From the NCBI RefSeq assembly GCF_007679035.1, contig NZ_VEFR01000002.1, positions 349,245-413,244 of the forward strand: DNA of 64,000 nucleotides, written 5' to 3'. Shown here piece by piece: positions 7,592 through 62,610 of the stretch (position 1 is its first letter; each line of letters starts with the position of its first letter). Origin of the DNA: Agrococcus jejuensis. GTDB taxonomy: Bacteria; Actinomycetota; Actinomycetes; Actinomycetales; Microbacteriaceae. Position numbers and translations under genes: made by a program. The notes below the pieces were generated by a model that searched no databases, was not told the DNA's origin, and saw nothing but the letters and a program-made list of their open reading frames with translations.

Positions 7592-7667
7592 CGGTCGTCA
7601 TACCCGCCTCACGGGGTCTCGCGAGAGTGGTGCTCGCACACAGGGAGCACCGAAGAAGGAGACCATC

Positions 7668-8600: not shown

Positions 8601-8603
8601 ACA

Positions 8604-8643: not shown

Positions 8644-8653
8644 CTCCCGAGCG

Positions 8654-12640: not shown

Positions 12641-12800
12641 CCGGCTGGCCGAGGAGCGGCCTTGGTGGGCACCTCTCGAGGCTCACTTCGTTCGCACCTC
12701 GAGGAGCGGTCATGGGAACCTCGTGGCGCGCTCCCCCTCCGACCCTCGAGGTGCGAGCGCAGCGAGCCTCGCAAGGGTCTCGCCGATCAGCAGTGGTGGC
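12641..12800. repeat. Dispersed GC-rich palindromic element (CCTCGAGGTGCGAGCGCAGCGAGCCTCG core)
   Basis: It contains CACCTCGAGGAGCGG and CCTCGAGGTGCGAGCGCAGCGAGCCTCGCAAGG, boxes shared with 59575-59665 and 62440-62610. Confidence 0.5.
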
Positions 12801-25200: not shown

Positions 25201-28200
25201 CGGCGACGTCGTTGGCGAGCACGGCGACGGATGCGGCAGCACCCTGGCGCGCGCTGGCGACGTCGTCGACGGCGTCGGGCACGACGGCCTCGATCGTGGG
25301 GGTGACGGTCGCGGTCGTGGTGGTGCCGTTGGCGTCGGCGACGCGGTAGGTCACGGCGGTCGCGGTGCCCGCGAAGCTCGGGATCGGCGTGAAGACCACG
25401 CGCGGAGCAGCTGCGTCGGCGCGGGTGATCGCGTACGTGCCCTGGCCGGCGACGACGACCTCGGTCGTCTCGGCGCCCGTGCCGTCGAGCAGGCGCAACG
25501 TGTCGGGGCGCAGCGGCACGGCGGCGTCGCCGGCGGCGTCGTTCGCGAGCACGGCGACGGATGCCGCGGCACCCTGGCGCGCCGACGCCGTGTCGTTCGC
25601 GGCGACGGGCGTCACGGCCGTGATGGTCGGCGTGAAGGTCGAGGTCGCCGTCGTGCCGTTGGCGTCGGCGACGCGGTAGGTCGCGGGCGTCGCGGTGCCG
25701 GTGAAGGCGGGCGCCGGTGCGAAGACGAGCACGGGGCTCGCGGCGACGCTGCGGTCGACGCGGTAGCTGCCCTGACCGGGCACGAGCAGCAGGTCGACGG
25801 CGGCGTCGTTCGCGCCGACGAGCGTGAGCGACGAGCGCACGAGGGCGACGTCGACGTGGCCGCGAGCGTCGTTGGCGACGGCGTCGACCCGGACCTCGGC
25901 GCCCTGGCGCGCGGAGCCCGCGTCGGGGTTGGCGACGGGGGTCACGGCGGCGACGGTGATGCGGATGCTCGCGGTCGCGGTGGTGCCGTTGGCGTCGGCG
26001 ACGCGGTAGGGCACGGGGGTCGCGACGCCCGTGAAGCCGGGCAGCGGCGTGAAGGTCACGATGGCGCGGCCGTTGGCGGCGAACGAGAGCGCGTAGGTGC
26101 CCTGGCCCGAGATGGTGCGCTCGGCGGTCGCCTGGCCCGTGGGCGTGAGCAGCGTCACCGACGAGTCGACGAGCGGCACGGCGGGGTCGCCGGCGGCGTC
26201 GTTGCCGATGGGCACGACGGCGACCGCGCCTCCCTGGCGCGTGGTGGCCGAGTCGTCGGTCGCGGTCGGCGTGACGGGCGTGATCGTGGACGTCACGGTG
26301 GCGTCGGCGGTCGTGCCGTTGGCGTCGGCGATGCGGTAGCGCTGCGCCGTGGCCTCGCCCGTGAACGCAGGCAGGGGCGTGAAGACGATGCGCGGCGCGC
26401 TCGCCGTCGACCGGTCGATCGTCCAGGTCCCCTGGGTCGCGACCGTGATCGTCGTCGCGAGCTGCCCGTTGCCGTCGACGAGGCGCAGCGACGCGGGGTC
26501 GAGCGGCACGCCGGCGTCGCCGGCGGCGTCGTTGGCGAGCACGGCGACGGATGCGGGGGCACCCTGGCGCGCCGACGTCGTGTCGTTCGCCGCGGTCGGC
26601 GTCACGGGCGTGATCGTCGGCGTGATCGTGGAGGTCGCGACGGTGCCGTTCGCGTCGGCGACGCGGTAGGTCGCCGCGTTCGCCTGGCCGGTGAACGCGG
26701 GCAGCGGCGTGAAGCGCACGACGGGCATCGACGGCGTCGAGCGGTCGACGCGGTAGGTGCCCTGGCCCGCGACGACCACCTCGTCGACGGAGGCGCCGTT
26801 CGCGCCGACGAGCGCGAGCGTCGTGGGCTGGAGCGGGCGGCGCGCGTCGCCGGCGGCGTCGTTGCCGAGCGGTGCGACGGCCACGGCGGCCCCCTGGCGC
26901 GCGGTGCCGGCGTCGGGGTTGGCGACGGGCGTCACGGCCGTGAGCGTGGGCGTGTAGGCGGCGGTCGTCGTCGTGCCGTTCGCGTCGGCGACGCGGTACG
27001 AGACGGGCGTCGCGGAGCCGACGAACGTCGGCTCGGGCGTGAAGACGATGCGCGGGCTCGACGGCGTCGAGCGGTCGACCGTGTACGTGCCCTGGCCCGC
27101 GACGACGACCTGGTCGGTCGCCTGGCCGCCCGAGAGCAGCGTGAGCGTGCCCGGGGTGAGCGGCACGGCGGCGTTGCCGGCCTGGTCGTTGGCCAGCGGT
27201 GCGACCGACAGCGCGATGCCCTGCGCGCCGGTGGCGGCGTCGTTCGCGGCGACGGGCGTCACGCGCACGAACGTGGGCGTGAACGTGGTCGTCGCGGCGG
27301 TGCCGTTGGCGTCGGCGACGCGGTACGAGACGGATGCGGGCGTGCCGATGAAGGTGCGGTCGGGCGTGAACGTGATGGTCGTGCCGCTCAGCGCGTAGGT
27401 GCCGCCGGTGACGGCGAGCGAGGTGACGGCCTGGCCGGAGCCGTTCAGCAGCGTGAGGGTCGACGGCGCGAGCGGCACGTTCGGGTTGCCCGGTGCGTCG
27501 TTGGCGAGCGGCTGCGTCGACTGCGCGACGCCCTGCGGACCCGTGGTGGTGTCCGGCTGCAGCGCGGGGTTCACCGCCGTGACGGTCACGGCGAGCGTCG
27601 TGCGGCGGTGGTTGCCCTGTCCGTCCTCGACGTCGTAGGTGACGGGCGTCGCGGCGCCGCGGAAGGCGGCGAGGGGCGTGAAGACGACCTGGCCGTTCTG
27701 CACGGCGTACGTGCCCTGGCCCGAGACCGTGATGGAGCTGGCGAGCTGACCGGTCGAGGGGTCGACGAGGCGCAGCGTCGCGGGCACGACGTCGGTCGCG
27801 TCGTTCGCGAGCACGGCCACGGTCTGCGCGAGGCCCTGCGCGCCGGTCGACGCGTCGGGGCTCACGCCCGTCTGCACCGTCGCGGTCCACGTCGCGGTCG
27901 TCGTCGTGCCGTTGGCGTCGGCGACGCGGTACGGTGCCGCGGTGGCCACGCCCGTGAAGCCGGGCAGCGGCTGGAAGGTCAGCTGGCCGTCGACGACGCG
28001 CCAGGTGCCCTGGGATCCGACGGTGAGCGCGGTGACGGCGGTGGTGCCCGAGAGCAGCGTGAGCGTGGAGCGCACGAGCGGCACGGCGGCGTTGCCGGCC
28101 TGGTCGTTCGCGAGCGGGTCGATGCGCTGCAGCGCACCCTGCGCGCCCTGCGACACGTCGTTCGCGGCGGTGGGCGTCACGGCGGTCGTCGTCGCCGTGT

Positions 28201-30751
28201 AGGTCGAGGTCGCCGAGGTGCCATTCGCGTTCGTCACGCGGTAGGTGGCGCTCGGCGCCGTGCCCACGAAGGTGCTCGTGGGCGTGAAGACGAGGGTCGA
28301 GCCGCTCACCGAGTAGGTGCCACCCGTGACGGCGAGCGTCGAGACCGCCTGGCCGGAGCCGTTCAGCAGCGTGAGCGCCGACGCGTTCCAGCCGATGCTC
28401 GCGTTGCCCGTGGAGTCGTTCGCGTACGGGTTCACCGACTGGGCGACGCCCTGCGGACCCGTCGTGGCATCCGCGTTCGCCGCCGGGGTGACGGGCGTGA
28501 CGGTCGCGGCGATCGTCGCCTGCACGACCGTGCCCGCGGTGGTGCCGACGCGGTAGTCGATCTGGGTCGCGGCGCCCGTGAAGCTCGCGACGGGCGTGAA
28601 GACCACGGTGGTGCCGTTGACCGACCAGGTGCCCTGGCCCGAGACGGCGTACGACGTGACGGAGGCGCCCGTGGTGGGGTGCACGAGGCGCAGCGTCGAG
28701 CCGTCGAGCGTGACGCCCTGCGCGCCGTCGTTGGCGAGCACGGCGATGGTCTGGGCGACGCCCTGCGGTCCCGTCGACGCGTCGTCGACGGCGACCTGCG
28801 TCACGGTGGGCGTGTACCGGGCGGTCGCGGTGACGCCGCGCGAGTCGGCCACCTGGTAGCGCACGCCGGAGGCCTGGCCGACGAAGTCGGCGACGGGTGC
28901 GAACGCGATCGCTCCCGTCGACGTGTCGACCGTGTACGTGCCCTGGCCGGCGACGGCGAGCGACGTGACGGCGGACGTGCCGTCGAGGATGCGCACGGTC
29001 GACGGCACGAGCGGCACGGAGGCGACGCCGGGGGCGTCGTTCGAGAGCACGGCGGCGGTCTGCGTCGCGCCCTGGGCGCCGGTCGTGGCGTCGTCGCTCG
29101 CCGTGGGCGCGGCGGGCGCCGAGACGGTGACGGTGAGGGTCGCGGTCGTCGAGCGGCCCGCCTCGTCGGTGACGCGGTACGTGAGGGCGGGGGCGGTGCC
29201 GACGTAGCCGGCGGCGGGCGTGAAGGTGATGGCGCCGTCGGAGGTGCGCACGGTGAAGGTGCCCTGCGCCGTCGTGAGGGTCTGGACCCAGCTCGAGCCG
29301 GACTGCAGGCGCACGCTCGAGGGCACGAAGGCGACGCCGCCCGTCGTGTCGTTGTCGAGCACGGCCACGGTCGTGGCCGTCTCGAACGCGGTCGTGCGCG
29401 CGTCGTTCGCGGCCGACGGCTGCGGCACGGTGAGCGTGACGGCGTGGTCCTCGACCTCGCCTCGCTGCACGACGCCCGCGGGGTTCGCGACCATGGCGGC
29501 GGTCGTGCCGATGCGCAGGCGCGCGTAGGTCGGCGATGCGCTCGTCGCGCTCACGGCGTCGTCGGGCACGGTCCACGTGAGCGACGCCGAGCCGCTGGTG
29601 CATGTGGCCGTGGCGCGCTCGTCGCCGTCGAACGAGCCGTTGCCGTCGAAGTCGATCCACGCTGCGACGCTGTTCGTGCTCGACGTCGCGGCGGCGCACG
29701 ACACGGGCACCGTGACGCTCTGACGCGGTGCGACCGTGAGCGCGAAGCCCGCCGACAGCGCATCCTCGTCGTCGAGCCCGTTCTGGTCGTCGCCGACGGC
29801 GCCGGCGGTCGTGAAGGGCCCGGTCTCGGCATCGACGAGGCTGCCGAGGCGCGGCGTCGACTGCTGGCGCGTCGCGAGGGCGAAGGACGACGCGCTCACG
29901 TTCGTCGCGGTCGTCGAGACGGTGCCTCCCGAGAACGTGCTCACGAGCCCGTGCGTCGCCGTGCCGTAGGACGCAGGCGCATCGCTGTGGTCGAACGACG
30001 CCACGACGCCGAACGCAGCGGCCTGGATGCCGCCACCGAACAGGCGCACGCCCGTGATCGACGTGGCGCCCTCGGCCATCGCGACGACGACGTTCGTGCC
30101 CGAGCCGCACTCGCCGTTCGACGTCAGCGTGAGCTGGTTGGCCGTCGTGCTGCGCTGCGCGGTGACGTTGAAGCTCGGGCACACGCCGGCGGGCGTGCGG
30201 TCGAGGATGCGCCACGTGGCGCCCGAGGCGATGGTGCCGCGGATGCTCTCGCCCGACGCGAGGCTCTCGGCGTCCGCCATGACGAGGCCGTCGAGCGGGT
30301 AGGCGACGCCGCCGAGCGTCGCCGAGCAGGCGACGTCGAACTGCGAGGTGGCGCCGGTCTGCGTCGCGAGGCCGATCGACCCCGTGCCGGGGTAGAGGTT
30401 GTCGAGGTAGTCGCCGCTGTAGGAGCCGGGCGTGTACGGCGAGAGGATCTGGCCGGCGGTGTTGCGCTGCGTGTCACGAGCGAGGTTCGAGAGGGTGCAC
30501 GTCGTGACGAATGGCTGACCGTTGACCTGCACGGTGTTCGTCTGCGTCGCGCCCGAGTTCGCGATGGTGCCCGACCACTGGAACCAGTTGATCTCCGCGG
30601 GCAGCGCTCCGGTGCCACCCGTGGCGTACGCCGCCTGCGCCGGCGCGGGCGCGGTGACGAGCGGTGCCGCGAGGGCTCCGAGCAGCACGGCCACGAGTCC
30701 GACGAGGAGCCCATGGCGGAGCTTGCTGGGGCGCTGGCGGCGTGAGAGCAC
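13265..30751 (-). CDS. Giant (5,828 aa) LPXTG-anchored cell-surface protein with about 50 tandem Ig-like (Big_9 / tandem-95-type) repeats
   Basis: One uninterrupted 17,487-nt ORF with a GTG start. The signal peptide is VLSRRQRPSKLRHGLLVGLVAVLLGALAAPLVTAPAPAQA. The ~430-aa non-repetitive N-terminal region includes a GEVED-type motif (FDGNGSFDGDE...GEVEDHAVTL). About 50 repeats of ~95-100 aa follow, each with the signature ...ARQGA.V.V..LANDxAG...VPL.P.TL.LLD...GQGTY.VDR.....PR.VFTP...F.GTAT.VTYRVADANGTT.TAT.TPT...VTPVA.. After a PGTPGPSD x3 linker, the C-terminus ends with the sorting signal LPRTG plus a hydrophobic segment and RRRR. Confidence 0.85.
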   Translation of the reverse strand: MLSRRQRPSKLRHGLLVGLVAVLLGALAAPLVTAPAPAQAAYATGGTGALPAEINWFQWSGTIANSGATQTNTVQVNGQPFVTTCTLSNLARDTQRNTAGQILSPYTPGSYSGDYLDNLYPGTGSIGLATQTGATSQFDVACSATLGGVAYPLDGLVMADAESLASGESIRGTIASGATWRILDRTPAGVCPSFNVTAQRSTTANQLTLTSNGECGSGTNVVVAMAEGATSITGVRLFGGGIQAAAFGVVASFDHSDAPASYGTATHGLVSTFSGGTVSTTATNVSASSFALATRQQSTPRLGSLVDAETGPFTTAGAVGDDQNGLDDEDALSAGFALTVAPRQSVTVPVSCAAATSSTNSVAAWIDFDGNGSFDGDERATATCTSGSASLTWTVPDDAVSATSASPTYARLRIGTTAAMVANPAGVVQRGEVEDHAVTLTVPQPSAANDARTTAFETATTVAVLDNDTTGGVAFVPSSVRLQSGSSWVQTLTTAQGTFTVRTSDGAITFTPAAGYVGTAPALTYRVTDEAGRSTTATLTVTVSAPAAPTASDDATTGAQGATQTAAVLSNDAPGVASVPLVPSTVRILDGTSAVTSLAVAGQGTYTVDTSTGAIAFAPVADFVGQASGVRYQVADSRGVTATARYTPTVTQVAVDDASTGPQGVAQTIAVLANDGAQGVTLDGSTLRLVHPTTGASVTSYAVSGQGTWSVNGTTVVFTPVASFTGAATQIDYRVGTTAGTVVQATIAATVTPVTPAANADATTGPQGVAQSVNPYANDSTGNASIGWNASALTLLNGSGQAVSTLAVTGGTYSVSGSTLVFTPTSTFVGTAPSATYRVTNANGTSATSTYTATTTAVTPTAANDVSQGAQGALQRIDPLANDQAGNAAVPLVRSTLTLLSGTTAVTALTVGSQGTWRVVDGQLTFQPLPGFTGVATAAPYRVADANGTTTTATWTATVQTGVSPDASTGAQGLAQTVAVLANDATDVVPATLRLVDPSTGQLASSITVSGQGTYAVQNGQVVFTPLAAFRGAATPVTYDVEDGQGNHRRTTLAVTVTAVNPALQPDTTTGPQGVAQSTQPLANDAPGNPNVPLAPSTLTLLNGSGQAVTSLAVTGGTYALSGTTITFTPDRTFIGTPASVSYRVADANGTAATTTFTPTFVRVTPVAANDAATGAQGIALSVAPLANDQAGNAAVPLTPGTLTLLSGGQATDQVVVAGQGTYTVDRSTPSSPRIVFTPEPTFVGSATPVSYRVADANGTTTTAAYTPTLTAVTPVANPDAGTARQGAAVAVAPLGNDAAGDARRPLQPTTLALVGANGASVDEVVVAGQGTYRVDRSTPSMPVVRFTPLPAFTGQANAATYRVADANGTVATSTITPTITPVTPTAANDTTSARQGAPASVAVLANDAAGDAGVPLDPASLRLVDGNGQLATTITVATQGTWTIDRSTASAPRIVFTPLPAFTGEATAQRYRIADANGTTADATVTSTITPVTPTATDDSATTRQGGAVAVVPIGNDAAGDPAVPLVDSSVTLLTPTGQATAERTISGQGTYALSFAANGRAIVTFTPLPGFTGVATPVPYRVADANGTTATASIRITVAAVTPVANPDAGSARQGAEVRVDAVANDARGHVDVALVRSSLTLVGANDAAVDLLLVPGQGSYRVDRSVAASPVLVFAPAPAFTGTATPATYRVADANGTTATSTFTPTITAVTPVAANDTASARQGAAASVAVLANDAAGDAAVPLRPDTLRLLDGTGAETTEVVVAGQGTYAITRADAAAPRVVFTPIPSFAGTATAVTYRVADANGTTTTATVTPTIEAVVPDAVDDVASARQGAAASVAVLANDVAGHPDVPLAPGSVTLLDAAGQPATSVRVDGAGTYALDTRTASAPRVVFTPLASYVGTPTAVTYRVADANGTTTTAVVTVTIGAVTPVAVDDVASARQGAPASVAPLANDLAGDADVPLVADTLELLDANGAPAETVTVAGGSYAIVDGAQPRIVFTPDAAFAGEAAPVTYRVADANGTTATARFTPTIGAVTPIARPDAGSARQGAPATIDALANDEAGDADVPLRPTSLALLADGAPVDEIVVPNEGTWTVDRDGAEPVLVFTPLATFTGATAAVAYRVLDENGTQATSTAIATIGAVTPVAIDDEGTARQGATVVIDALANDEPGDADVPLDDASLVLLDGDAEVSEIVVDGQGTWTIDRATASLVFTPLAGFVGTAAVDYRVRDDNGTPADATARAILTAVTPTAAPDAGDGRQGETVRIDALANDEAGDPDVPLQPATLRLLSGATPVTELVVADEGTWTVDLDADGGPELVFAPLPGFSGLTTAAPYRVLDANGTQAASTAVATITAVTPLAADDVAAGRQGAPASVAVLANDASGHPDVPLRPTTLELLGADGQPAATVTIDGQGTYAITRADAAAPRVEFTPIPSFTGQATPVTYRVADANGTTTTATVTPTIDAVTPTAQADWASARQGAPVRIDAVANDLAGHADVPLAPATLALLDGAGAATDEVVTVVGAWRVDRTTAEAPVLVFTPQPSFVGTTEPVAYRVLDANGTAATSVATATITAVTPTATPDVAAARQGAPASVAPLANDRPGLADVPLVPSTLVLLDTAGQPATTVDVDGGRYAIEASETAPRIVFSPAASFTGEAAPVTYSVADANGTRTSSTFTPTITSVVPVATNDRQSERQGLPVRIDAVANDQAGHPDVPLVQSTLTLRDGAGNDVDELVVQDRGTWRVDRSVAAAPVLVFTPLPSFGGATSRVTYAVADANGTVTTARATAMLEAVTPVAADDQAAARQGAEASVAPLANDAAGHPDVPLDPETLELLDANDQPATIVDVAAGSYRIEQVAGVPTIVFTPLASFVGPADPVRYRVADANGTTTTARFTPTISGVQPVAARDGGAARQGASVTVAPLENDAPGIDDVPLDPESFTLLDDDGQPVAELVVAGVGRWTVDRTDPAAPTVTFAPERGFTGDASIDYEVRDQNGTVATTTITATIAPVTPSADDDFATARQGAVASVAPLDNDDAGHPDVPLDPATLSLLDGTTVVDEVVVAGQGTYALDRGAQGGPRIVFTPVSTFTGNATVVTYRVADANGTTTTATFRPTLSAVRPVANPDAGTARQGARVSMAVLANDLAGDPAVALRPGTLQLLDAQGAPATTVAVTGGSYAIDATNAAAPRVVFTPDATFVGTAASVTYSVADANGTRTTSTATPTLTAVTPVAIDDAATGRQGAAVAVEPLRNDIPGHADVQLDADTLTLLDGTAAVDSLRVPGQGTYAIERGGEGGPRIVFTPETTYVGTADAVAYRVADANGTTTSATYAATLTAVTPIAADDAATGRQGSTVAVAPLANDVPGDAAVALEPGSITLLDGTTAVDVLVVADQGTYALDRAAAGGPRIAFTPLPAFVGTATGVAYRVADANGTATTATFTPTLTAVTPVANADEGSARQGAPVSLPVLANDVAGDRAVPLDPASLRLVGAGSALVTELVVDGQGTWTIDRATASAPRVVFTPLPGFVGEATPVDYSIADANGTRATAAVAATIDAVTPTANPDVASARQGAPASVAVLANDRAGHPDVRLVPSTLTLLDGTGAPATTVRVVGGTYAIDASTAAAPRVEFTPAPSFVGTAAPVTYRVADANGTTTTATVTPTIGAVTPVATPDVGEAHQGTTVTIDALANDRAGAADVPLARPTLMLLDGEAAVDELVIDGQGAWTVDRRTESAPVLVFTPLPTYAGSSTVAYRVADANGTVATSTATATLVAVTPTATDDAATARQGAAASVAVLTNDAAGHPDVALDPASVRLLVDGAPVTSIEVDGVGTWTIDRANLVAPRIVFTPVATYVGTPDAVTYVVADANGTTATAQVTATIAAVTPIAVADAGEARQGATVTIDAVANDDAGHPAVPIVASTLTLVDAEGAAADEVEIAGQGTWRVDRDDEDAPVLVFAPLPSFASTSTVSYRVSDANGTVATSTATAIIDAVTPIARPDVATSRQGATASVAPLANDAAGLDDVPLDPTTLTLVDDAGTPVATVTVAGQGTYAVVADATMPRIAFTPEPSFRGTATPARYGVADANGTVAIATVTAVVEAVTPVATADVASARQGAPVSVAPLANDAAGRDDVPLDPETLELLGADGQPAATVAIDGQGTYEIDADAEGGPRIVFTPLDAWVGAATPVTYRVADANGTRTSATFTPTSLAVTPVADPDAATGRQGAPVSIAVLANDVAGLDEVPLDPATLTLLVDGAPVDRIEVADEGTWTIDRTTAGGPYLVFAPLPGFTGDASPIAYRVSDDNGTHASAVVDVTIDAVTPTAAPDGGAARQGASVTIDAIENDVAGHPDVPLAPASLSLLDGETAVDELEIEGQGTWTVDRADVDAPVLVFAPLPGFVGQSTVAYRVADANGTPATSTATATIGAVLPVANPNSAGTRQGAPVTIDVVANDAAGDPDVPLVPSTLTLLDGETAVDELVVTGEGTWTVDRTVEAAPVVRFAPELGFAGPATTVAYRVADANSTTAASTVGVRVAPVVPVANDDEAAARQGARASVAPLANDAAGHPDVPLVPSTLTLLDADGADAPSVTIADAGTYALELDAEGGPRIVFTPLPGFTGTADAVRYRVADENGTTVEAGFAATITGVAPVAVADAGTARQGAPVTVSPLANDVAGLDEVPLDADSLLLLDADGEPIARVVVPGVGTWSIDRAGAGGPTVTFAPEADYSGTATIEYEVRDANGTRTSSSIAATIVAVTPTAEADRGQTYQGAPMTVDVLANDAAGHPDVPLVPSTLTLLDADGEPTDRIFVLDEGTWTIELGDDDLPVVRFAPAAGFRGDAAPVEYRVADANGTLARAEIVVAVAAVAPVAVDDVASGLQGAPVSIAPLANDVPGRTEVPLVPSTLTLLTAAGAPVDVLVVAGEGRYAIDRDAMGGPRIVFTPEADHTGAATPVAYRVADANGTAVEATFTPTSTAVTPVATDDEATTTQGRSATILVLANDQAGHPSIALRPSTLTLLDAAGDAVTTLDVADQGTWRIDRTDAAAPRLVFEPLATFAGDATPVSYRIADANGATATAEVAVRVTPVTPIAVDDEGEARQGAVVAVSPLDNDRAGAPGVPLVASSLTLLDANGARVDEVSVPGVGTWSIDRAGATPRIVFATDPTFTGSASVQYAVADANGTWTTAAIVIAEVTAVTPVAADDAGAALQGSPVRIDPLANDRAGDPAVALDPASLMLLDAAGEPVATREVEDEGTWSIDRDDPAAPRVVFTPLPTFRGDATPVGYVVADVNGTRATASLGVTITAVLPVATDDVGAARQGAAATIDVLANDAAGHPSVPLRPATLELVDADGAGVDRLVVDGQGVWTIDRSTPAAPVVVFTPAATFSGDATPVPYRVADANGTVATATVGATIGAVAPIASPDLGTGRQGAPVVVDVLANDEAGDPDVPLRPQTLQLLDDAGQPIDRVVVDGQGVWTIDRSGDAPVLVFTPEPGFVGTTPAVGYRVSDANGIPATGTARATVSAVTPVAADDSSSGVQRAPQSVDPLANDAAGDPGVPLVRESLTLLDAVGAPAAVVVVAGEGSYALVDGRIVFTPEAGFVGIGAGVAYRVLDANGTAAAATYRPQVTAGSTEVVADIAASAPEGSPVTVDPGSVSPTLQRDSVRLLDAFGAQVQRLVVPGEGVWEVDVATGLVTFTPEVGFTRNPTPVRWTGIAADGTIVTGEIVIEFAQDPGTPGPSDPGTPGPSDPGTPAPSDPGTPEPSAPAPSGPGSDDGGPESGAEGGQAGSDLPRTGVAVAGWLALAAMLAIGAGLVLGVRRRRGEG

Positions 30752-47682: not shown

Positions 47683-47696
47683 GCCCCCAGGGGGCG

Positions 47697-48077
47697 CTAG
47701 CCGCGCGCGGGTGCGTCGTCGCCGAGGTCGGCGAGCGCCACGGCGATCGCACCGGTCGCCGCGTCGATGTGCGCGTCGAACTGCAGCTGCGCGATCGGGC
47801 GCAGGATGGGGCGACGCGCGTGGTTCGCGGCTGCTTCGCGCGCCTCGTCGGTCGCCTGCGTGGCGGCGAGCAGGCACATCGCCACCGAGCGGTCGAGGTC
47901 GGTGTCGCCGAGGTGACGATTCGCGGACGCGGCGCACGCGCCGATGCGGTCGAGCTGCGCGGCGTCGCGGATGCCGATCGTCTCGTCGTCGAAGCGGCGC
48001 AGCAGGCTCTGCATCTCGAGGAGGTCGGTGGTGACGTCGTTCGGCACGCAGACGATCATGCACCCATCGGCCGTCAT
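47697..48077 (-). CDS. Hypothetical protein
   Basis: It is a 126-aa ORF with no confident family. Confidence 0.3.
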   Translation of the reverse strand: MTADGCMIVCVPNDVTTDLLEMQSLLRRFDDETIGIRDAAQLDRIGACAASANRHLGDTDLDRSVAMCLLAATQATDEAREAAANHARRPILRPIAQLQFDAHIDAATGAIAVALADLGDDAPARG

Positions 48078-48099
48078 CGCGCGAAGCGGGGGCTGCGCG

Positions 48100-48790
48100 T
48101 CCGCTGGGATCGTGGTGCTCCGGCCTCCCCGTCAGCTGGTCGAGAGCCGTCCTTCCCTTGCCGCCCTCCGTCCGGGGACGCCCTCCTTCCAGCTGGTCGA
48201 GGAGGCCCCGAGCGCAGCGAGGAGCCGTCTCGAGACCACGCGACGTGCCCGCTCGGCGCGACCACGCGCGTGGCCGGGCAGGAGCAGCGCTCCCGTGGTC
48301 TCGTGACGCGGGCTCGCCCAGGGGCTCGCGCGCTCCTCGACCAGCTGGATGGGGGCCGCCCGGCCCGCCCGCCCCTTGCCGCCCTCCGTCCGGGGACGCC
48401 CTCCTCCCAGCTGGTCGAGGAGGCCCCGAGCGCAGCGAGGAGCCGTCACGAGACCACGCGACGTGCCCGCTCGACGCGACCACGCTCATGCTGGTGGGGA
48501 GCCGCCCGGCCCGCCCGCCCCTTGCCGCCCTCCCTCCGGGGACGCCCTCCTCCCCGCTGGTCGAGGAGCGCAGGCGCGAAGCGCCTCCGCGTCACGAGAC
48601 CACGCGACGTGCCCGCCCGAGGCGACCACGCGCGTGGCCGGGCAGGAGCCGCGCTCGCGTGGTCTCGTGACGCGTGCTCGCCCAGGGGCTCGCGCGCTCC
48701 TCGACCAGCTGGTGGGGAGCCGAACGGCCCGTGAGGTACGAACGCAGAGCCTCGAACGGCCCCCTCAGGACACGCGAGCCCCCACCACCG
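48100..48790. repeat. Tandem block of composite GC-rich palindromic repeats, about 3 copies of a ~210-bp A+B unit
   Basis: The unit has two parts. Part A is CAGCTGGTGGGGAGCCGCCCGGCCCGCCCGCCCCTTGCCGCCCTCCGTCCGGGGACGCCCTCCTCC. Part B is CAGCTGGTCGAGGAGGCCCCGAGCGCAGCGAGGAGCCGTCACGAGACCACGCGACGTGCCCGC...CGCGTGGTCTCGTGACGCG.GCTCGCCCAGGGGCTCGCGCGCTCCTCGAC. CGTCACGAGACCACGCG and CGCGTGGTCTCGTGACG are exact reverse complements. Confidence 0.7.
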
Positions 48791-51743
48791 CATCCGCCAG
48801 CACGCCGTCCGCCCACTCGCGGGCCACGTCGCCGACGTCGAGCGGTCCCGACGCGTCGTGCCTGCCGTACTCGCCGACGCGCGTGGCGCCGCGGGCAGCG
48901 AGCGCCTCGTCGACGCGCTCCGACCCGCGCGAGTACGTCTTCGCGTACGAACGGTCGCCCATCCCGAAGACCGCGTACCGCAGCGCGTCGAGCCGACCCG
49001 AGCCGGCGACGAGCGCCTCGTGGAAGGGCCGCGCAGCGGTCGGCACCTCGCCGTCGCCGTACGTCGAGCAGACGACGAGGTGGATGCGCGACGCGTCGAG
49101 CGCCTCGGGGTCGGCGTTGGCGAGGTCGACGACAGCCACGTCGGTGCGGCCCGCGAGGTGCTGCGCGAGGTCCTCGGCGACGAGCTCGGCGCCGCCCGAC
49201 TCCGTGCCGAAGAGGATCGTCACGGGCACGCCGACGCCGCCCGCCGCATCCGCGACGGCCCCGATCTCCGGCAGCGCGATCGACGCGTCCGCCGCGACTG
49301 CCCGCAGCGCGTCGATCGTGCGCAGCTTCGCGCGCCGCCGGCCGGGCGCGGCCGCGAGCGTCTCGGCGACGTCGATGCGCCGCCAGCCGTCGAAGTCCGT
49401 CGCGCCGTCGAAGTCGGCGACGCCCGGCCGACCGATGGGCACGGCACCCGTCGACAGGTCGTCGAGCACGAGCCCCGCGAGCCCCTTCGCGTCGGTGCGC
49501 TGGTCGGGGATGGTGCCACGGGGTCCGCGGCGCAGCCAGCCGGCGACGTAGAGGCCCGGCTCGACGCGGCCATCGGCGTGCGCGCCGGGCTCGACCAGGC
49601 AGTCGTCGCCTGCCGCGAAGCCGATCGCGGTCACGACCGACGACGCCTCGAGCACCCGCTCCCCCGCGGGCGTCGCCACGCGCATGCCCGCGACGGCCTC
49701 GGCACCGAGCACCGCGACGGGCGTCGCACCGAACCACCAGTGGATGCGCACGCGCACGTCCCCGACCATCCCGGACGCGCGAGCGGCGAGCGCGCGCACG
49801 GCATCCATGCGCGCATCCTTGCCCTCGGGCACGGTGGCGAGGTCGACGTCGTGCACGACGTGCTCGACCCCGGCGAGCGTGGCGAGCTCGCGCACCATCA
49901 CGGGGTCGAAGCGTGCTGCGTCGGGCGCGGAGCGACCCACGAGATGCACGTCGCGCACGTCGCCGGCGAGCGCGTGCCGCACGGCGTCGTCGACGTCGGT
50001 GCCGTCGAACTCGGCGGGGTCGCGGACGACGAGCCGCGCCACGTCCATCGCCACGTTGCCGTGGCCCACGATCACGACCGAGCGGCCGAGCGACGGCACG
50101 TCGGCCTCGTCGGGGTGGCCGTTCAGGATGCGCGTGACCGTGCCCGCTCCGACCACACCGGGCAGCGAGGCGCCCGGGATCGCGAGCGCCGCGTCGGCCG
50201 AGAGCCCCGTCGCCAGCACGACCGCGTCGTAGTCGCGACGCAGGCGGGCCAGCGCGTCGGCGTCCACGTGCACGCCGCCGACGAACCGCACGCCCTCGTG
50301 CAGGAACAGCCGGTCGAACTGCCGCGCGACCGCCTTCGTGCCCTGGTGGTCGGCGGCGACGCCGTGCCGCACGAGCCCGTACGGCACGGGCAGGCGATCC
50401 ACGACGTCGAGGTGCGCGGCAGGCAGCGCGCGCCGCAGGGCCTGCGCCGAGAAGCAGCCCGCGGGCCCCGAGCCGACGATCGCGATGCGCGGCGCGAGCG
50501 CGGGCGCCGCGGCATCCCGCGCGGCGTCGACCGCGACCGACGCGCCCGCCGGGGCCACGGCATCCCACGCGATGGGCATCGAGAGCATGCCGCGGAACAC
50601 CCAGCCGCCGACCTCCGCCGGTCGGTCCGGCACGAGGTCGAGGCCGCGCAGCCGATCGAAGAGCATCGGCAGCGCCACGTCGGCCACCGCCGAGCGCGCC
50701 GCCCAGTTGCCGAGGCACACGTGCACGCCCTTCGAGAAGGCGAGGTGCGGCTTGACCTCGCGGCGCACGTCGAACGCGTCCGCGCGATCCCACACCGACT
50801 CGTCGCGGTTCGCGGAGAGGATGCAGATGCCGAGCCTCGCCCCTCGCGGCAGCGTGACGCCGGCGAGCTCGACCTCGCGCGTCGTCTGCCGCGAGTACAG
50901 CCCGATGGGCGAGATCCAGCGGATCGTCTCCTCGAACGCCGTCGGCCACAGGGTTGCATCCGCCTCGATGATGCGGCGCTGCTCGGGGTGCTGCAGCACG
51001 GCCCATGCGGCGACGCCCAGCGCGTCGCGCGGCTCGTTGAGCCCGCCGCCGATCGTCATCTTTACGTTGGCTCGGATGCGCTCGATGGGCATCTCGTAGT
51101 CGGGGATGCGGATGAGCTGCGAGAGGAGCGAGTGGTCGGGGTGCTTCGCGTGCCACGCGAGCATCTCGTCGAGCGCGGCGTCGACCTCGTCGAACGAGCG
51201 CTCGCCCCTCGCCCACACGTCGGGGTCGTCGGCGTAGTTGCCGGTCGCGTCGATGAGCGTCTGCGACCACCGCTGCAGGTCGGTCTGGTGCACGTTGTGC
51301 AGGCCGAGCATCTCGCGCAGGTTCTCGGCGGCGAAGGGGGCGGCGAAGTCCCAGATGAGGTCGGCCTCGCCAGGACCCTTCGCGATCATCTCGTCGAGGT
51401 AGCGCGCGGCGTTGCGCTCGAAGACGCTGCGCCACACGCGCTTCACGACGCCGGGCCGCAGCGTCGGCTGCCACGCCTTCCGCTCGAGGTGGTGCTCGGG
51501 GTCGTCGCGTCGCAGCATCGAGTGCCCCATGGCGCGGATCTGCAGCGACCCCTCCTCGTTCGCCGAGAAGGTCGCCTGGTCGACCTCGGTCGCGTGCACG
51601 GCGTCGTAGGTCGTGACGAGGTACCGGCCGACGGCGGGCACCCAGTGCACGCCGCCCTCGGCGCGCAAGCGCTCGTAGATGGGGAAGGGGTCGCGGTACA
51701 GGTCGGCGATCTGCACCCAGTCGGCGACGGGAGGGGTCGGCAT
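48765..51743 (-). CDS. Self-sufficient cytochrome P450 fused to an adrenodoxin-reductase-like FAD/NADPH reductase and a C-terminal flavodoxin (P450-FprA/XplB-like-flavodoxin)
   Basis: It is a single 992-aa ORF. The N-terminal P450 has the ExxR motif EETIRW and the Cys-ligand loop FSKGVHVCLGNWAARS. The middle domain has GxGxxG (IAIVGSGPAGCF), a second Rossmann fold (VVIVGHGNVAMDVARLV) and an adrenodoxin-reductase-like segment (YVAGWLRRGPRGTIPDQRTDAK). The C-terminal flavodoxin has VTILFGTESGGAELVAEDLA...VVCSTYGDGE...YAVFGMGDRSY. Confidence 0.85.
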   Translation of the reverse strand: MPTPPVADWVQIADLYRDPFPIYERLRAEGGVHWVPAVGRYLVTTYDAVHATEVDQATFSANEEGSLQIRAMGHSMLRRDDPEHHLERKAWQPTLRPGVVKRVWRSVFERNAARYLDEMIAKGPGEADLIWDFAAPFAAENLREMLGLHNVHQTDLQRWSQTLIDATGNYADDPDVWARGERSFDEVDAALDEMLAWHAKHPDHSLLSQLIRIPDYEMPIERIRANVKMTIGGGLNEPRDALGVAAWAVLQHPEQRRIIEADATLWPTAFEETIRWISPIGLYSRQTTREVELAGVTLPRGARLGICILSANRDESVWDRADAFDVRREVKPHLAFSKGVHVCLGNWAARSAVADVALPMLFDRLRGLDLVPDRPAEVGGWVFRGMLSMPIAWDAVAPAGASVAVDAARDAAAPALAPRIAIVGSGPAGCFSAQALRRALPAAHLDVVDRLPVPYGLVRHGVAADHQGTKAVARQFDRLFLHEGVRFVGGVHVDADALARLRRDYDAVVLATGLSADAALAIPGASLPGVVGAGTVTRILNGHPDEADVPSLGRSVVIVGHGNVAMDVARLVVRDPAEFDGTDVDDAVRHALAGDVRDVHLVGRSAPDAARFDPVMVRELATLAGVEHVVHDVDLATVPEGKDARMDAVRALAARASGMVGDVRVRIHWWFGATPVAVLGAEAVAGMRVATPAGERVLEASSVVTAIGFAAGDDCLVEPGAHADGRVEPGLYVAGWLRRGPRGTIPDQRTDAKGLAGLVLDDLSTGAVPIGRPGVADFDGATDFDGWRRIDVAETLAAAPGRRRAKLRTIDALRAVAADASIALPEIGAVADAAGGVGVPVTILFGTESGGAELVAEDLAQHLAGRTDVAVVDLANADPEALDASRIHLVVCSTYGDGEVPTAARPFHEALVAGSGRLDALRYAVFGMGDRSYAKTYSRGSERVDEALAARGATRVGEYGRHDASGPLDVGDVAREWADGVLADAVVGARVS

Positions 51744-52894: not shown

Positions 52895-53200
52895 CCGCAC
52901 ATCCCACGTTCCCCTTCGACGCGCACTCCTCCCAGCTGGTCGAGGCCCGAGCGCAGCGGGGAGCCGTCACGAGACCACGCGACGTGCCCGCACGACGCGG
53001 CCACGCACGTGGCTGGGCAGGAGCTGCGGTCGCGTGGTCTCGTGACGCGTGCTCGCTGCGCTCGCGCGCTCCTCGACCAGCTGGTGGGGTCCGCCCGATG
53101 CCCCTGGCGCTCCGCTCCCCTGACCGCTCCCCGAGGTGCGAGCGAACCGAGCCTCCAGAGGCGCCCGCCGCAGACCCCACCAGGCATCCCCCACCCCGCC
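52895..53200. repeat. Dispersed composite element: B-type hairpin unit plus a CCTCGAGGTGCGAGCGAACCGAGCCTCCAGAGG box
   Basis: It is near-identical to part B of the tandem block at 48100-48790 (CAGCTGGTCGAGG...CGTCACGAGACCACGCGACGTGCCCGC...CGCGTGGTCTCGTGACGCG...CTCCTCGACCAGCTGG). The box shared with 59575-59665 and 62440-62610 follows. Confidence 0.55.
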
Positions 53201-54124: not shown

Positions 54125-54200
54125 CCCATCCCCATCCGCTGGTCGAGGAGCGCGCGACCGCAGCGAGCCCGCGTCACGACACTCGAGTCACCCCGAGCAC
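54125..54200. repeat. Partial dispersed element (GCTGGTCGAGGAGCGCGCGACCGCAGCGAGCCCGCGTCACGAC)
   Basis: It carries box 1 plus box 2 of the dispersed family. Confidence 0.4.
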
Positions 54201-54482: not shown

Positions 54483-54565
54483 GGTGTCACGCTGCTCCCC
54501 TCCGGCCCCGCGTCGCGCCGCCTGGACAGCCCACGGGCTCGCCCGCTATGTGCGCCGCGCCCATC

Positions 54566-54642
54566 CGTGCGTCTCGCAGGCGATCCGGGCGAATGAAGGG
54601 ACGATGCCCCCTCTGCCACCCCTGATCGCCTGCGATACGCAA
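54566..54642. repeat. Hairpin element family P3 (third copy)
   Basis: Sequence: CGTCTCGCAGGCGATCCGGGCGAATGAAGGGACGATGCCCCCTCTGCCACCCCTGATCGCCTGCGATACGCAA. Confidence 0.55.
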
Positions 54643-54659
54643 CCGACCCGTCCGAAGCG

Positions 54660-54732
54660 ATTGCGTTTCGCAGGCGATTCCGCGAGCCAAGGGAGCATTC
54701 CCCTCGGCTCGCGGAATCGCCTGCGAAACGCA
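54660..54732. repeat. Long perfect hairpin element family P2 (TTGCGTTTCGCAGGCGATTCCGCGAGCC-loop-GGCTCGCGGAATCGCCTGCGAAACGCA)
   Basis: The 28-bp arms are perfectly complementary around the loop AAGGGAGCATTCCCCTC. It lies downstream of the proX stop (minus strand), which is consistent with a terminator or REP-like role. Confidence 0.65.
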
Positions 54733-54805
54733 GACACGCCGCCCCGCACACGCCAGCGAGGCGGCGACCCGAAGGTCACCGCCCCGCCCGCCGTCGAGGA
54801 TCCGA

Positions 54806-55717
54806 CTACTCGACGACGATCGTGTCGAACGCGTCGGGGTTCGCCTCGAGCCACGCCTCGATGGCCTCGGCCTCGCGGCCGTCCCCGTACTCGTTGACGA
54901 CCATGTCCTCCAGCGATGCGTACTGCTCGTCGGTCAGCTGGATGCCGGCGATGTACTCCGCCGCCTCGGGGAACTCGTCCGCGAAGCCGTCGGTGCCGAG
55001 GAAGTGCAGGCCCTCCGTGCCGCCCATGAGGCCGTTCGGGTCCTCGAGCGCGCGCAGGTCGTACGCCTCGTTCGCCCAGTACGGCGCCCACGAGGTCACG
55101 ACGATGTCGCGCTCGGCGGCGATGGCCGTGTCGAGCTCGGCGAGCATCGCGGCGGTCGAGGAGGTGACGAGCTCGTAGTCGTCGAGGCCGGCCTCGGGCA
55201 TCATCGACTCGGTCTGGGCGGTGAGGCCCGCGCCGGGCTCGATGCCGACGATCTGGCCGCCGAAGCGGTCCGCCTGGCCGACGAGCTCGTCGATCGACGT
55301 GATGTCGACGTAGTCGGGCACCGACAGGTTGAGGCTCGCGCCCTCGTAGTACGTGCCGAGGTCCTCGATGCTGTCGCCGTACTCCTCCATGTAGGAGGCG
55401 TGGGTCAGCTCGGGCCATGCCGACGGGTAGATGTCGACGTCGCCCTGGGCGAGGCCCGTATAGAGCGGGCCCGCCTCGGTGAGCTCCTGCATCTCGACGG
55501 TGTAGCCGAGCTGCTCGAGCTGGTTCTCGAGCAGGTAGGCGGTCGAGAGGCCGTCGGTCCACGAGGGCAGGAAGCCGAGCGTGATGGTGCCGAGGCTGTC
55601 GCCGGAGCCCTCGCCCGAGCCTCCCTCGGTCTGGTTGCCGGTGGCGCAGCCGGTGAGCGCGAGCGCGGCGGCGGCGCCGATCGCGGCGATGCCGGTGAGA
55701 CGGGTGCGATGCATCAT
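54806..55717 (-). CDS. proX: Glycine-betaine/proline ABC transporter substrate-binding lipoprotein (ProX / OpuAC-like)
   Basis: The lipobox is LALTGCATG and the translation matches the OpuAC family. It is the last gene of the proVWX operon. Confidence 0.8.
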   Translation of the reverse strand: MMHRTRLTGIAAIGAAAALALTGCATGNQTEGGSGEGSGDSLGTITLGFLPSWTDGLSTAYLLENQLEQLGYTVEMQELTEAGPLYTGLAQGDVDIYPSAWPELTHASYMEEYGDSIEDLGTYYEGASLNLSVPDYVDITSIDELVGQADRFGGQIVGIEPGAGLTAQTESMMPEAGLDDYELVTSSTAAMLAELDTAIAAERDIVVTSWAPYWANEAYDLRALEDPNGLMGGTEGLHFLGTDGFADEFPEAAEYIAGIQLTDEQYASLEDMVVNEYGDGREAEAIEAWLEANPDAFDTIVVE

Positions 55718-55767
55718 GTCCTCTTTCGTGTGTCGTTCGTGCGTTGCGTATGGATGGAGGGGATGGG

Positions 55768-56693
55768 TCAGGCGACCTGCGCGAGGCCGCGCTGCGCGTC
55801 GCTCACGACGGCGCGCTTCGAGGCCGCACGCCGGCGCTGCAGGATGCCGAGCAGCGACCAGCGGTAGTCGCGGGCGGCGCCGAGCGCAGCGGTGAGGCGG
55901 TCGAGGTAGACGGCGATGATGACGACGCTCAGGCCGGCCTCGACGCCCGTGGCGATGTCCACGGTCGACATGGCCTGCACGATCTCGGAGCCGAGCCCGG
56001 GGGCGCCGGCGATGCCGGCGATGACGGCCATCGACAGCGCGAGCATGATGACCTGGTTGATGCCGGTCATGATCGTGGGCATCGCCAGCGGCAGCTGCAC
56101 GCCGCGCAAGATCTGCCCGGGCTTCGCGCCGAAGGCGTACCCGGCCTCGACGGTCTCGCCGTCGACGCCGCGGATGCCGAGCTCCGTGAGCCGCACGCCG
56201 GGCGGCAGCGAGAAGATGATCGTCGCCACGAGGCCCGGCACGACGCCGATCGAGAAGAAGACGATCGCCGGGATGAGGTAGACGAAGCCGGGCATGGCCT
56301 GCATGAGGTCGAGGATCGGCCGCAGGATGGCGCTGAACCGGTCGCTGCGCGCGGCGAGGATGCCGAGCGGCACGGCCACGAGCACGGTCACGACGGTGGC
56401 GACGAGCACGAGCGCGAGCGTCTGCATCGCGGTGATCCACTGGCCCATGCCGAGGATGAGCGCGAACGTGATGGCGGTGCCGAGGGCGAACTGCCACGAG
56501 CGCAGCAGCCAGGCGAGCAGCGCGGCGATCACGATGACGACGACGATGGGCGTCGACACGAGCAGCTCGGTGAGCGAGCGCACGAGCGTGCCCATCACCA
56601 TCGAGAGCGTGCCGAGCAGCCAGTCGAGGTTGTCGCGCATCCAGCGCACGGCGTCCTCGGCCCACATGCCGATGGGGATGCGGAAGCCATCCA

Positions 56694-56694
<1 letters not shown>
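55768..56694 (-). CDS. proW: Glycine-betaine/proline ABC transporter permease (ProW / OpuAB-like)
   Basis: The 308-aa polytopic protein has BPD_transp_1-type segments. Confidence 0.85.
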
Positions 56695-57977
<1,283 letters not shown>

Positions 57978-58398
57978 GTGCACCTCACGCCGCCGCGCAG
58001 GATGGCGCGCGGCAGCATCGGTCGCGTCCGGGTCAGCGGTCCGGCGGCGCGCATCCATGACGGACGGCGCACGGCGCGGATGTCGGATCTGCGCCACGGG
58101 CCACCGACCGTACGCTCGCCGGTCTGGTGCCGCGGTGCTCACGCACCTGCAGGCATCACCAGCGACCGCGGACTGGTCGGATCGGGCCCCGAGGGACCGC
58201 ATCCACCATGTCTCCGAGGATTGCTCGATGCAACCGCGCTGAGGGCTTGCGCACTGCTGGCACCGCGACTATCACGTGCGTGCGTAGCAAAGCCTCGTGC
58301 ATGCTTCCCGGCCGCGATCGTGCGCCGAACGTTGCCCTTTCGTGACCTTCCCGCGCGGGTCGGCGGGCGGTCGGCGCCCCCTGCTATGCCCGCCTCGG

Positions 58399-58471
58399 AT
58401 TGCGTTTCGCAGGCGATTCCGGGCTCCGAGGGAGCATTCCCCTCGGCTCCCGGAATCGCCTGCGAAACGCA
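58399..58471. repeat. Long hairpin element family P2 (second copy, with compensatory arm changes)
   Basis: Sequence: GATTGCGTTTCGCAGGCGATTCCGGGCTCCGAGGGAG-CATTC-CCCTCGGCTCCCGGAATCGCCTGCGAAACGCAATC. Inner-arm positions differ from copy 1 but pairing is retained. Confidence 0.65.
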
Positions 58472-59574: not shown

Positions 59575-59665
59575 CCGCCTCCTCGAGCTCGTGACGCAGT
59601 GCGCCGCCCCCATGCCCGCTCCTCGAGGTGCGAGCGAAGCGAGCCTCGAGAGGAGCCCCACCGAC
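59575..59665. repeat. Dispersed element with the CCTCGAGGTGCGAGCGAAGCGAGCCTCGAGAGG palindromic box
   Basis: The same box is found at 62440-62520 and, in variant form, at 12740-12780 and 53110-53160. Confidence 0.5.
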
Positions 59666-62398: not shown

Positions 62399-62439
62399 CA
62401 GCGTCGAGGGTCTCGGCCCGATATGAGGGCACATCGGGC

Positions 62440-62610
62440 CGAGACCCTCGACGCCACTGCCCGCTCCTCGAGGTGCGAGCGAGGCGAGCCTCGAGAGGGG
62501 CCCCGATCGAGGCCGCTCCCCCACCAGCTGGTCGAGGAGGCCGCTCGCGCAGCGAGCAGCCGTCACGAGACCCGAGTCACGACCGGCGCACCGGCCCGCG
62601 ACCACGCAGG
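62440..62610. repeat. Composite dispersed element (CCTCGAGGTGCGAGCGAGGCGAGCCTCGAGAGG box plus CCAGCTGGTCGAGGAGG...CGTCACGAGAC boxes)
   Basis: It combines the three boxes seen separately at other loci. Confidence 0.5.

Follow-up and report, generated by a model that had tools for sequence, protein, structure and literature searches.

Probable REP/BIME-like hairpin repeats in a tandem array beside a P450 fusion gene of Agrococcus jejuensis

The array in the P450-downstream spacer

The stretch of DNA considered here, called the window throughout, comprises 64 kb of the Agrococcus jejuensis genome with a G+C content of about 74%. Our subject is a tandem array that fills a complete intergenic spacer of 687 bp (48078-48764), as delimited by a gene map based on third-codon-position G+C content (GC3) and by the sequence. 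The spacer is flanked by a P450 fusion gene (stop at 48765, minus strand) and by the start of a co-directional 126-aa open reading frame (ORF), for which no Pfam match was found. The P450 fusion ORF (48765-51743, minus strand) carries P450, Pyr_redox_2 and flavodoxin domains in Pfam, and its product matches a protein of A. jejuensis (family Microbacteriaceae) with 100% identity. Exact-match look-ups of three window proteins and of one more protein (P0006) returned no record. We read the array as a cluster of non-coding palindromic repeats, selfish or structural in nature, resembling repetitive extragenic palindromes (REPs), their hairpin-forming doublets (REPINs) or bacterial interspersed mosaic elements (BIMEs), amplified locally by recombination or slippage and containing no gene. 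We place the probability of this reading at roughly 0.7.

The array is built from three kinds of sequence. B is an element of ~160 nt in which two head-to-head hairpins, the arms, surround a 47-nt centre; A is a 57-nt spacer; C is a further hairpin unit. Units were scored with two covariance models, R1 for C units and R2 for arms. Between 48125 and 48765 the features are as follows.

48125-48188, plus strand: terminal fragment of a B element (CTCCCCGTCAGCTGGTCGAG; its homologue in the A. jejuensis record LT629695 is the end of B with its flank) and a truncated A (48146-48188)
48189-48349, plus strand: B1, a full palindrome, with arms at 48191-48243 (plus) and 48291-48346 (minus)
48350-48406, minus strand: spacer A, copy 1, with a G-quadruplex motif at 48359-48375 on the minus strand
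48407-48495, plus strand: B2, a half element, retaining the left arm (48409-48461) and some of the centre but missing the right half (~72 nt) by deletion
48496-48552, minus strand: spacer A, copy 2, C-rich on the plus strand, with the G-quadruplex motif GGGGCGGGCGGGCCGGG at 48505-48521 on the minus strand
48553-48712, plus strand: B3, a full ~160-nt palindrome, with arms at 48555-48607 (plus) and 48655-48710 (minus) and a 47-nt centre
48723-48765, plus strand: degenerate C-type unit at the P450 stop codon (tca, 48765-48767, in plus-strand reading); R1 32.4 bits, E 8.5e-07

A repeat search found a 221-nt unit in three copies, which begin at 48147, 48365 and 48511 and are each 70-86% identical to the reference copy; TRF reported a period of 146 with 2.0 copies, 87% matches and a score of 448. 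An earlier note on this DNA, made from the sequence alone, had described a tandem A+B unit of ~210 bp in about three copies. Three copies are indeed present, although the units measure 218 and 146 nt and the middle B has lost half its length. The 17-bp inverted repeat that the note placed in B is real and in fact longer, pairing 48588-48607 with 48655-48674 over 20 nt with 100% complementarity.

Aligned in both orientations, seven full B copies from three genomes show that B is imperfect as a palindrome, with a fixed polarity and distinct arm subtypes on each side. Secondary structure prediction had been suggested in the earlier note as a check: folded as RNA, the B3 region (48540-48725) reached -137 kcal/mol against -100.6 for shuffled sequences (z -7.3), the opposite strand gave z -7.7 and the whole spacer z -6.6. 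On these predictions B can form a very stable long hairpin or cruciform. The two copies of spacer A are 95% identical to each other, and no further copy was found in the window or in about 190 fetched loci. The degenerate C unit runs antisense to the P450 gene and is orthologous to an intact C unit in LT629695 (12973-13017 of the 23-kb locus taken from that record).

A CRISPR array was considered and ruled out, given 160-nt palindromes that are 83-93% identical, spacers that are 95% identical and units of 218 and 146 nt. As a separate observation on the A spacers, their G-quadruplex motifs (GGGGCGGGCGGGCCGGG) stand on the sense strand of the P450 gene; short-loop (<=3 nt) motifs of this kind number three on both strands of the window, two of them in the A spacers and the third at 8004-8029.

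Hairpin units across the window

Arms and C units share one plan, which runs from an outer stem through GAGG(AG), an inner stem with a GAA or GCA triloop, C(G/C)TC(AC) and an unpaired GA back to the outer stem, over a unit length of ~45-50 nt. In the arm (~50 nt), the outer stem GCTGGTC pairs with GACCA(C)GC, the unpaired conserved motifs are GAGGAG and CGTCACGA, and the inner stem carries a GCA or GAA triloop, with tandem G.A mismatches frequent in Agrococcus. Arms are not confined to B elements and also stand singly, at 54137 and 62526 in the window and in many other genomes. The C unit has a variable 7-bp outer stem, a GAGG that pairs with CCTC, an inner GC-GA-GC / GAA / GC-GA-GC hairpin and, ahead of the 3' outer stem, a GA that is unpaired. 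In a variant of the inner stem, GTTCGC-GAA-GCGAAC, Watson-Crick pairs take the place of the G.A mismatches.

Support for this folding comes from substitution patterns. Standard pairs occupy 91.6% of the cells in the C unit alignment, against 79.6% in shuffles and 32-45% when the partners are slid, and both sides have changed in 9 of 14 pairs. The corresponding values for the arm are 84.8%, 74.7% and 27-45%, with both sides changed in 7 of 17 pairs; six of these seven belong to the 10 inner-stem pairs, and the arm outer stem contributes one compensatory change (C-G to U-A) in one sequence. The outer stem of C varies freely between sources: CTCCTC/GAGGAG in A. jejuensis, CCCT/AGGG in Agrococcus sp. 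SGAir0287, GGTT/AACC in an Actinomycetota metagenome-assembled genome and TCATCCT/AGGATGA in viral contigs. The B dimer and some C units also exceed the stability of shuffled sequences, unlike single arms.

Two intermediate forms connect the unit types. The unit at 428-477 mixes arm-type internal motifs with C-type outer stems, and a viral contig (L085) joins an arm-type and a C-type unit in one inverted dimer. Because of this hybrid and this mixed dimer, arm and C can be tied together, and judged by their sequences they are variants of a single hairpin plan. The three modules that the earlier note had listed separately are thus recognised here as variants of one plan, with a signature that extends well beyond the A. 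jejuensis genome.

The window holds six C units (R1) and 10 arms (R2), making 16 units at seven intergenic sites; of about 25 intergenic gaps that measure 100 nt or more, 7 are occupied. The six dispersed sites proposed earlier in addition to the array were all matched by the covariance models, so that the total is seven loci and not the eight or more that had been claimed. No strong R1 or R2 match fell in the coding sequence of the window; all strong matches lie in gaps of the GC3-based gene map, which agrees with the earlier statement that every copy is intergenic. Short motifs gave a comparable picture. The terminal motif CAGCTGGTCGAGGAG occurs 13 times with up to two mismatches against 0.37 expected, and a 30-mer from the C module five times against 0.00 expected. 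A 17-mer allowed up to three mismatches occurs eight times against 3.5 expected and is weakly above chance, with seven true copies at 0-1 mismatch. The sites outside the array are listed here.

409-508, plus strand: arm unit, apparently interrupted by a nested unit; begins 6 nt past a stop codon
428-477, minus strand: the nested unit, with arm-type internal motifs and C-type outer stems; R2 27.9 bits, R1 16.5 bits
12642-12782: partial arm start, then two inverted C units (12666-12710, minus; 12738-12782, plus); begins 7 nt past a stop codon
52930-53167, plus strand: full B (52930-53085), then a C unit (53123-53167), between LysR and HtaA-like genes; model matches 52934-53082 and 53123-53167
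54137-54186, plus strand: single diverged arm between convergent genes; R2 34.1 bits, E 4.4e-07
59615-59659, plus strand: single C unit between divergent genes; R1 69.9 bits
62460-62578, plus strand: C unit (62460-62504), then an arm (62526-62578), matched by R1 and R2

The last of these lies downstream of a perfect hairpin (62400-62455) that itself follows a stop codon. Inverted pairs of C units, as at 12666/12738, recur at 5116/5177 in the LT629695 locus and at many loci in IMG/VR.

Turnover among related strains and the origin of the array

Four further Agrococcus genomes were compared, each represented by a 23-kb locus. A. jejuensis LT629695 (3.40 Mb; locus L077) has five C units and four arms, and Agrococcus sp. 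SGAir0287 (CP027942, 3.08 Mb; locus L078) has six C units and four arms by the same models, whereas Agrococcus sp. ARC_14 (L079) and A. carbonis (L081) have neither. The search of related genomes that the earlier note had recommended was therefore positive in two cases and negative in two, and because the ARC_14 and A. carbonis loci have no copy, the family is specific to one lineage inside the genus. Where it is present, its arrangement differs from strain to strain.

P450-downstream spacer, LT629695: C and one B, 291 bp
P450-downstream spacer, window: C' and B-A-half B-A-B, 687 bp
P450-downstream spacer, SGAir0287: C-B-C-C-B, 560 bp
LysR / HtaA-like spacer: B in LT629695; B and C in the window; three tandem C units and no B in SGAir0287

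Units thus reach intergenic sites and turn over there between strains, with changes in copy number, content and orientation. The C unit past the P450 stop lies on opposite strands in LT629695 and SGAir0287; a ~75-nt segment with the C unit at 53123 is cleanly missing in LT629695, with no flanking duplication; and B is present in 1, 2, 3 or 4 copies among assemblies. Spacers that are this unstable between strains, through changes of copy number, module swaps and inversions, are therefore hotspots for recombination and for assembly errors.

The four-copy case comes from GCA_029960005.1 (contig JASCOW010000061.1, 9872-10621; locus L196), the one match of a protein-database search with the open frame that crosses the array. 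Four tandem B elements with eight alternating arms and unrelated spacers, flanked by the genes of a phosphatase and an RpiR-type regulator, fill a gap of ~880 bp there that is annotated as a 291-aa protein. This protein is almost certainly a spurious ORF. Since A is unique to the present array and the spacers of this second array are unrelated to it, local amplification of B together with adjacent sequence is a recurrent behaviour and no trait of a composite A+B element. In the composite element proposed earlier, the B repeat is real, while A is a local spacer that was carried along by duplication.

Sequence identities give some indication of how the array arose. B2 and the half of B1 that corresponds to it are 93% identical, and B3 is 89% identical to B1 and 90% identical to the LysR-side B of LT629695, its closest copy; the two B copies of SGAir0287 are 98% identical to each other. 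Because the A copies (95%) and the B2/B1 part (93%) are so similar, they are best seen as a recent in-place duplication of B with its spacer. The closeness of B3 to the LysR-side copy of LT629695 suggests that the two B sites on either side of the P450-LysR pair have undergone exchange or conversion. The array would then have originated by duplication in place and not by repeated insertion. A resident B with its flanking spacer A would have been duplicated by unequal recombination or replication slippage between repeats, one B copy would have lost half its palindrome, and one would have exchanged with, or been converted by, the B copy 4.3 kb away. Such half deletion is the usual fate of long palindromes.

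It might be argued that the three-copy block is a mis-assembled single B, since short reads make such repeats difficult to assemble and the contig of the window (748 kb) is a draft. However, the copies are non-identical (83-93%), their arm subtypes differ and one of them bears a specific half deletion. The SGAir0287 record (3.08 Mb) likewise has a multi-copy arrangement at this spacer, and the four-copy array stands in another assembly again. An assembly artefact, which the earlier note had named as a possible refutation, was not borne out and seems to us a very remote prospect.

The placement of the units raises a second question, namely whether they are kept as functional RNA, serving as exonuclease barriers at mRNA 3' ends, as factor-dependent terminators or as small RNAs, with the array as a reinforced 3' end of the P450 message. 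Consistent with this, many units begin 6-25 nt past stop codons, most single arms of the Nocardioides type (see below) are sense to the adjacent gene on rough GC3-based strand calls, and the stems covary while unpaired motifs are conserved. Orientation, on the other hand, does not follow transcription: the C unit at the same spacer is opposite in LT629695 and SGAir0287, the P450-adjacent unit of the window is antisense, and units are also found between divergent genes (59615) and, in frame, within an ORF. The number of B copies at one site varies from 1 to 3 among close relatives, and triloops of the GNA type closed by C-G are a feature of DNA hairpins. No T-tract terminator was found between 47900 and 48900 (0 terminator-like sites on either strand), nor any sigma-70-like promoter in the same interval. 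Rfam 15 gave 0 matches at gathering thresholds across the whole window, and at permissive E-values merely generic hairpin or miRNA-precursor matches far under threshold. We regard an explanation by RNA function as unlikely, although it is compatible with the reading of the array as REP/BIME-like repeats. A secondary role as an mRNA 3'-end barrier, or an effect on the promoter of the downstream ORF, would be plausible; the orientation of the units gives no support for the 3'-end role. Provided that oriC is the start of both records, the lagging-strand template would carry the C units of LT629695 (at 1.33 of 3.40 Mb) and those of CP027942 (at 2.72 of 3.08 Mb) on the same strand, and this placement, if true, would explain their opposite orientation relative to the genes.

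Several observations concern the neighbouring genes. The P450 fusion has 992 aa and consists of P450, an FAD/NAD(P) reductase (Pyr_redox_2) and flavodoxin, with a divergent LysR regulator adjoining it; homologues along its full length, 63-91% identical, occur widely in Microbacteriaceae and other Micrococcales. In SGAir0287, the P450 gene call is 1032 aa long and has no flavodoxin Pfam match, and the annotated ORF continues through the C unit into the first B element (12978-13099 of its locus), which suggests that the repeats caused a frameshift or a mis-call at the 3' end. A PemK-toxin / RHH-antitoxin pair stands beside a 119-aa ORF in LT629695 (13621-14239 of its locus) and is missing from the window strain, where the flanks join directly at 47683-47702. 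From about 54530 to 58400 (~3.9 kb), the window has no nucleotide match in the LT629695 locus, and the matching position in SGAir0287 holds ABC_tran / BPD_transp_1 / OpuAC genes. This segment is a strain-variable insertion or deletion edged by module-bearing spacers.

Two further repeats lie elsewhere in the window. A giant minus-strand ORF (13265-30751, about 5,830 codons) contains about 40 copies of a 330-bp (110-aa) repeat, for which TRF gave 14021-27333, period 330, 40.7 copies and 67% matches. At 7196-8653 (1.46 kb, mostly non-coding), more than 25 copies of the 10-mer GTGACCAGTC / GACTGGTCAC include several 20-21-nt tandem arrays on both sides of a Pro/Ala-rich small ORF (about 7669-8108). 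This 10-mer family is distinct from the hairpin family and might be an operator or iteron array.

Relation to known repeats and wider distribution

The REPIN concept is reportedly due to Bertels and Rainey. Compared with the REP and REPIN sequences of Proteobacteria, as set out by Nunvar et al. 2010 (PMC2817692) and Di Nocera et al. 2013 (PMC3733652), the Agrococcus units agree in being short GC-rich imperfect palindromes in many intergenic copies, with conserved unpaired motifs beside a stem that shows compensatory changes. They agree further in the predominance of head-to-head dimers that could form a larger hairpin, in occasional in-frame intragenic copies and in patchy presence among related species. 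They differ in size (45-50 nt against 20-40 nt) and in their two-tiered build of outer stem, internal loop and inner stem, and they have no GTAG tag. An Agrococcus CGTC (or CCTC) does sit 3' of the inner stem, yet the dimensions of the classes CGTC-1 to CGTC-4, which combine stems of 8-9 bp, their first pairs A/T, with loops of 4-5 nt and a CCA tail, do not fit, and Actinobacteria are not among the phyla reported for CGTC-tagged REPs (PMC3733652). No gene for a REP-associated tyrosine transposase (RAYT, a Y1 transposase) was found in the window or in the related 23-kb loci.

The likeness to BIMEs is one of arrangement. Both are mosaics of alternating palindromic units separated by other short motifs, both are tandemly amplified with strain-variable copy number, and both lie between co-directional or convergent genes. 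Tandem amplification with conserved linker motifs characterises the BIME-2 type; linker A of the present array, by contrast, is no family motif, and the spacers of the four-copy array are unrelated. E. coli BIMEs are also known to bind IHF or gyrase. Their REPs are regularly spaced in alternating orientations (PMC2817692).

An alternative that deserves weighing is that B is a classical MITE (miniature inverted-repeat transposable element), that is, a deletion derivative of an insertion sequence (IS) with terminal inverted repeats (CAGCTGGTCGAGGAG), a DDE transposase and target-site duplications. B has inverted repeats of 15-16 nt at its ends and a MITE-like length of ~160 nt, and it is present in some genomes and missing in others; like Correia/NEMIS, RUP and Nezha, it is intergenic and has long hairpin potential. 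Its inverted repeats, however, are the outer stems of two hairpin units that are also seen singly and in direct tandem, so that the half units are independent repeats, and conservation across genomes lies in the internal loop motifs and not in the termini. Target-site duplications, for which the earlier note had advised a search, were not seen as direct duplications beside the B copies or at the C insertion/deletion. The window contains neither a transposase nor an IS with B ends that could serve as parent, and BLAST of B and C against plasmid and phage collections gave no match. A MITE origin is therefore improbable in our estimate, more so than an RNA function. The earlier description as a REP/MITE-like family is upheld for its REP half, through multiple intergenic copies, covariation, strain variability and occurrence in other genomes; its MITE half is not supported.

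For a REP-like family, the question is how the units spread. Lagging-strand coupling is a property of the IS200/IS605 elements, and triloops of the GNA type closed by C-G, as in d(GCGAAGC) mini-hairpins, are exceptionally stable in DNA. We infer that the Agrococcus units probably spread as hairpins of single-stranded DNA, an intermediate that an enzyme encoded outside the window would recognise in trans, because conserved single-stranded motifs stand beside a variable stem, the triloops are GNA and orientation is independent of transcription. Subterminal hairpins of IS200/IS605 elements are recognised by Y1 HUH transposases (PMC6006769), and a hairpin with conserved single-stranded flanks, with GNA triloops that favour DNA hairpins, is the type of substrate that such enzymes read. 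No Y1 HUH enzyme is linked to the Agrococcus units, and the parallel is a mechanistic analogy.

The units were also sought beyond Agrococcus. A scan of a genome collection with the 17-mer CGTCACGAGACCACGCG was unspecific and returned mostly single chance matches; among the matches listed, true arms occur in about a dozen of 76 loci. Their hosts are Nocardioides islandensis, N. pelophilus and metagenome-assembled genomes of Nocardioidaceae and unclassified Actinomycetota. The Nocardioides-type arm has the form (C/T)TGGTCGAGGAG, a 5-6-bp stem with a 3-4-nt loop, then CGTCACGAGACCACGCGG, and is often found in direct tandem arrays of partial and full units that often start shortly past stop codons. 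One arm of N. pelophilus (5675-5720 of its locus) lies in frame in an ABC-exporter ORF, in the linker ahead of the nucleotide-binding domain, and is translated as GGRGGRPGDRHETTR in the protein context ...DADTHPGGRGGRPGDRHETTRDTTGEVAFENVSFSY... The same ORF has a second arm with tandem partial units near its 5' end.

A 23-nt core of the C unit is present exactly in 10 IMG/VR contigs. The dimer from one of these contigs matches alphaproteobacterial replicons only (four Methylobacterium, one Roseibium, one Ancylobacter), with at least 40 matching places in one Methylobacterium bullatum replicon, whose units R1 scores at 32-34 bits. A related unit, CCTGAGGAGC-hairpin-GCGTCTCGAAGG, occurs 147 times in 104 IMG/VR stretches. 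Its inner stems covary freely, most loops are GAA (38) or GCA (23), and the inner sequence GAGCGAAGCGA known from Agrococcus is among those it contains. The IMG/VR units are commonly inverted pairs 60-80 nt apart.

Some of these loci have features of their own. At 4400-4830 of one viral-contig locus (L091), and at similar loci, regular ~155-nt mosaics consist of C units in alternation with another long hairpin repeat (GTCATTGCGAGGAGCGCAGCGACGAAGCAATCC ... GGATTGCTTCGCTGCGCTCGCAATGAC), and this second repeat has the GAGCGCAGCGA core too. Two contigs of the uncultured Actinomycetota metagenome-assembled genome MFD04212.bin.1.94 (L075, 5880-7316; L036, from about 3113 downward) share the start of a 478-aa ORF and an identical upstream leader, and the ORF is preceded in both by arrays of C units and arms. 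An assignment of this ORF as DUF222/HNH (REP13E12-like) was considered and dropped, as no Pfam or NCBIfam match was found.

Taken together, these units may belong to one superfamily. Tentatively, and with rather more doubt than confidence, we propose that the arms and C units of Agrococcus, the arms of the Nocardioides type and the very common units of alphaproteobacteria (CCTGAGG-hairpin-C/G-TCTCGAAGG) could be one ancient cross-phylum superfamily of DNA hairpins, not previously described as such, propagated on single-stranded DNA by an enzyme other than a classical RAYT and able to land in frame in genes. Four features would make up its signature: GAGG(AG), a GNA triloop on a stem that covaries, C(G/C)TC, and a GA left unpaired. 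The motif strings led to no relevant paper in the full-text literature and were absent from the text and supplements of PMC3733652, a search that did not extend to its figures.

A number of points weigh against this picture of a dispersed hairpin family and of its mobility. The pair counts were made on the very sequences that had served to derive the structures. Single arms are no stabler than shuffles with nearest-neighbour DNA parameters (z +0.8 to -0.8), and since this thermodynamic support is not significant, the structure of the single arm is argued from covariation. The A. jejuensis copies observed all come from a single syntenic region, and the IMG/VR contigs are without host assignment. 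Mobility is deduced from differences in presence and orientation, which recombination could produce by itself; neither a clean insertion junction nor a target-site duplication was found at the B flanks or at the C insertion/deletion between the window and LT629695, and neither the window nor the annotated 23-kb neighbourhoods of LT629695 and SGAir0287 encode a transposase or Y1/HUH protein.

By itself, the tandem block is ordinary for REP/BIME-like elements, and the signature shared across Actinomycetota and Alphaproteobacteria is of more interest. Actinobacterial hairpin elements are largely missing from the REP literature searched. In practical terms, repeat spacers yield spurious ORF calls, such as the 291-aa protein of the four-copy array, and the R1 and R2 models would permit systematic masking or annotation of the units. 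For the biology of the family, our results suggest a signature of sequence and structure common to the REP-like elements of high-GC Gram-positive bacteria and to repeats that are abundant in alphaproteobacteria. If this cross-phylum link is true, it would point to a common recognition machinery.

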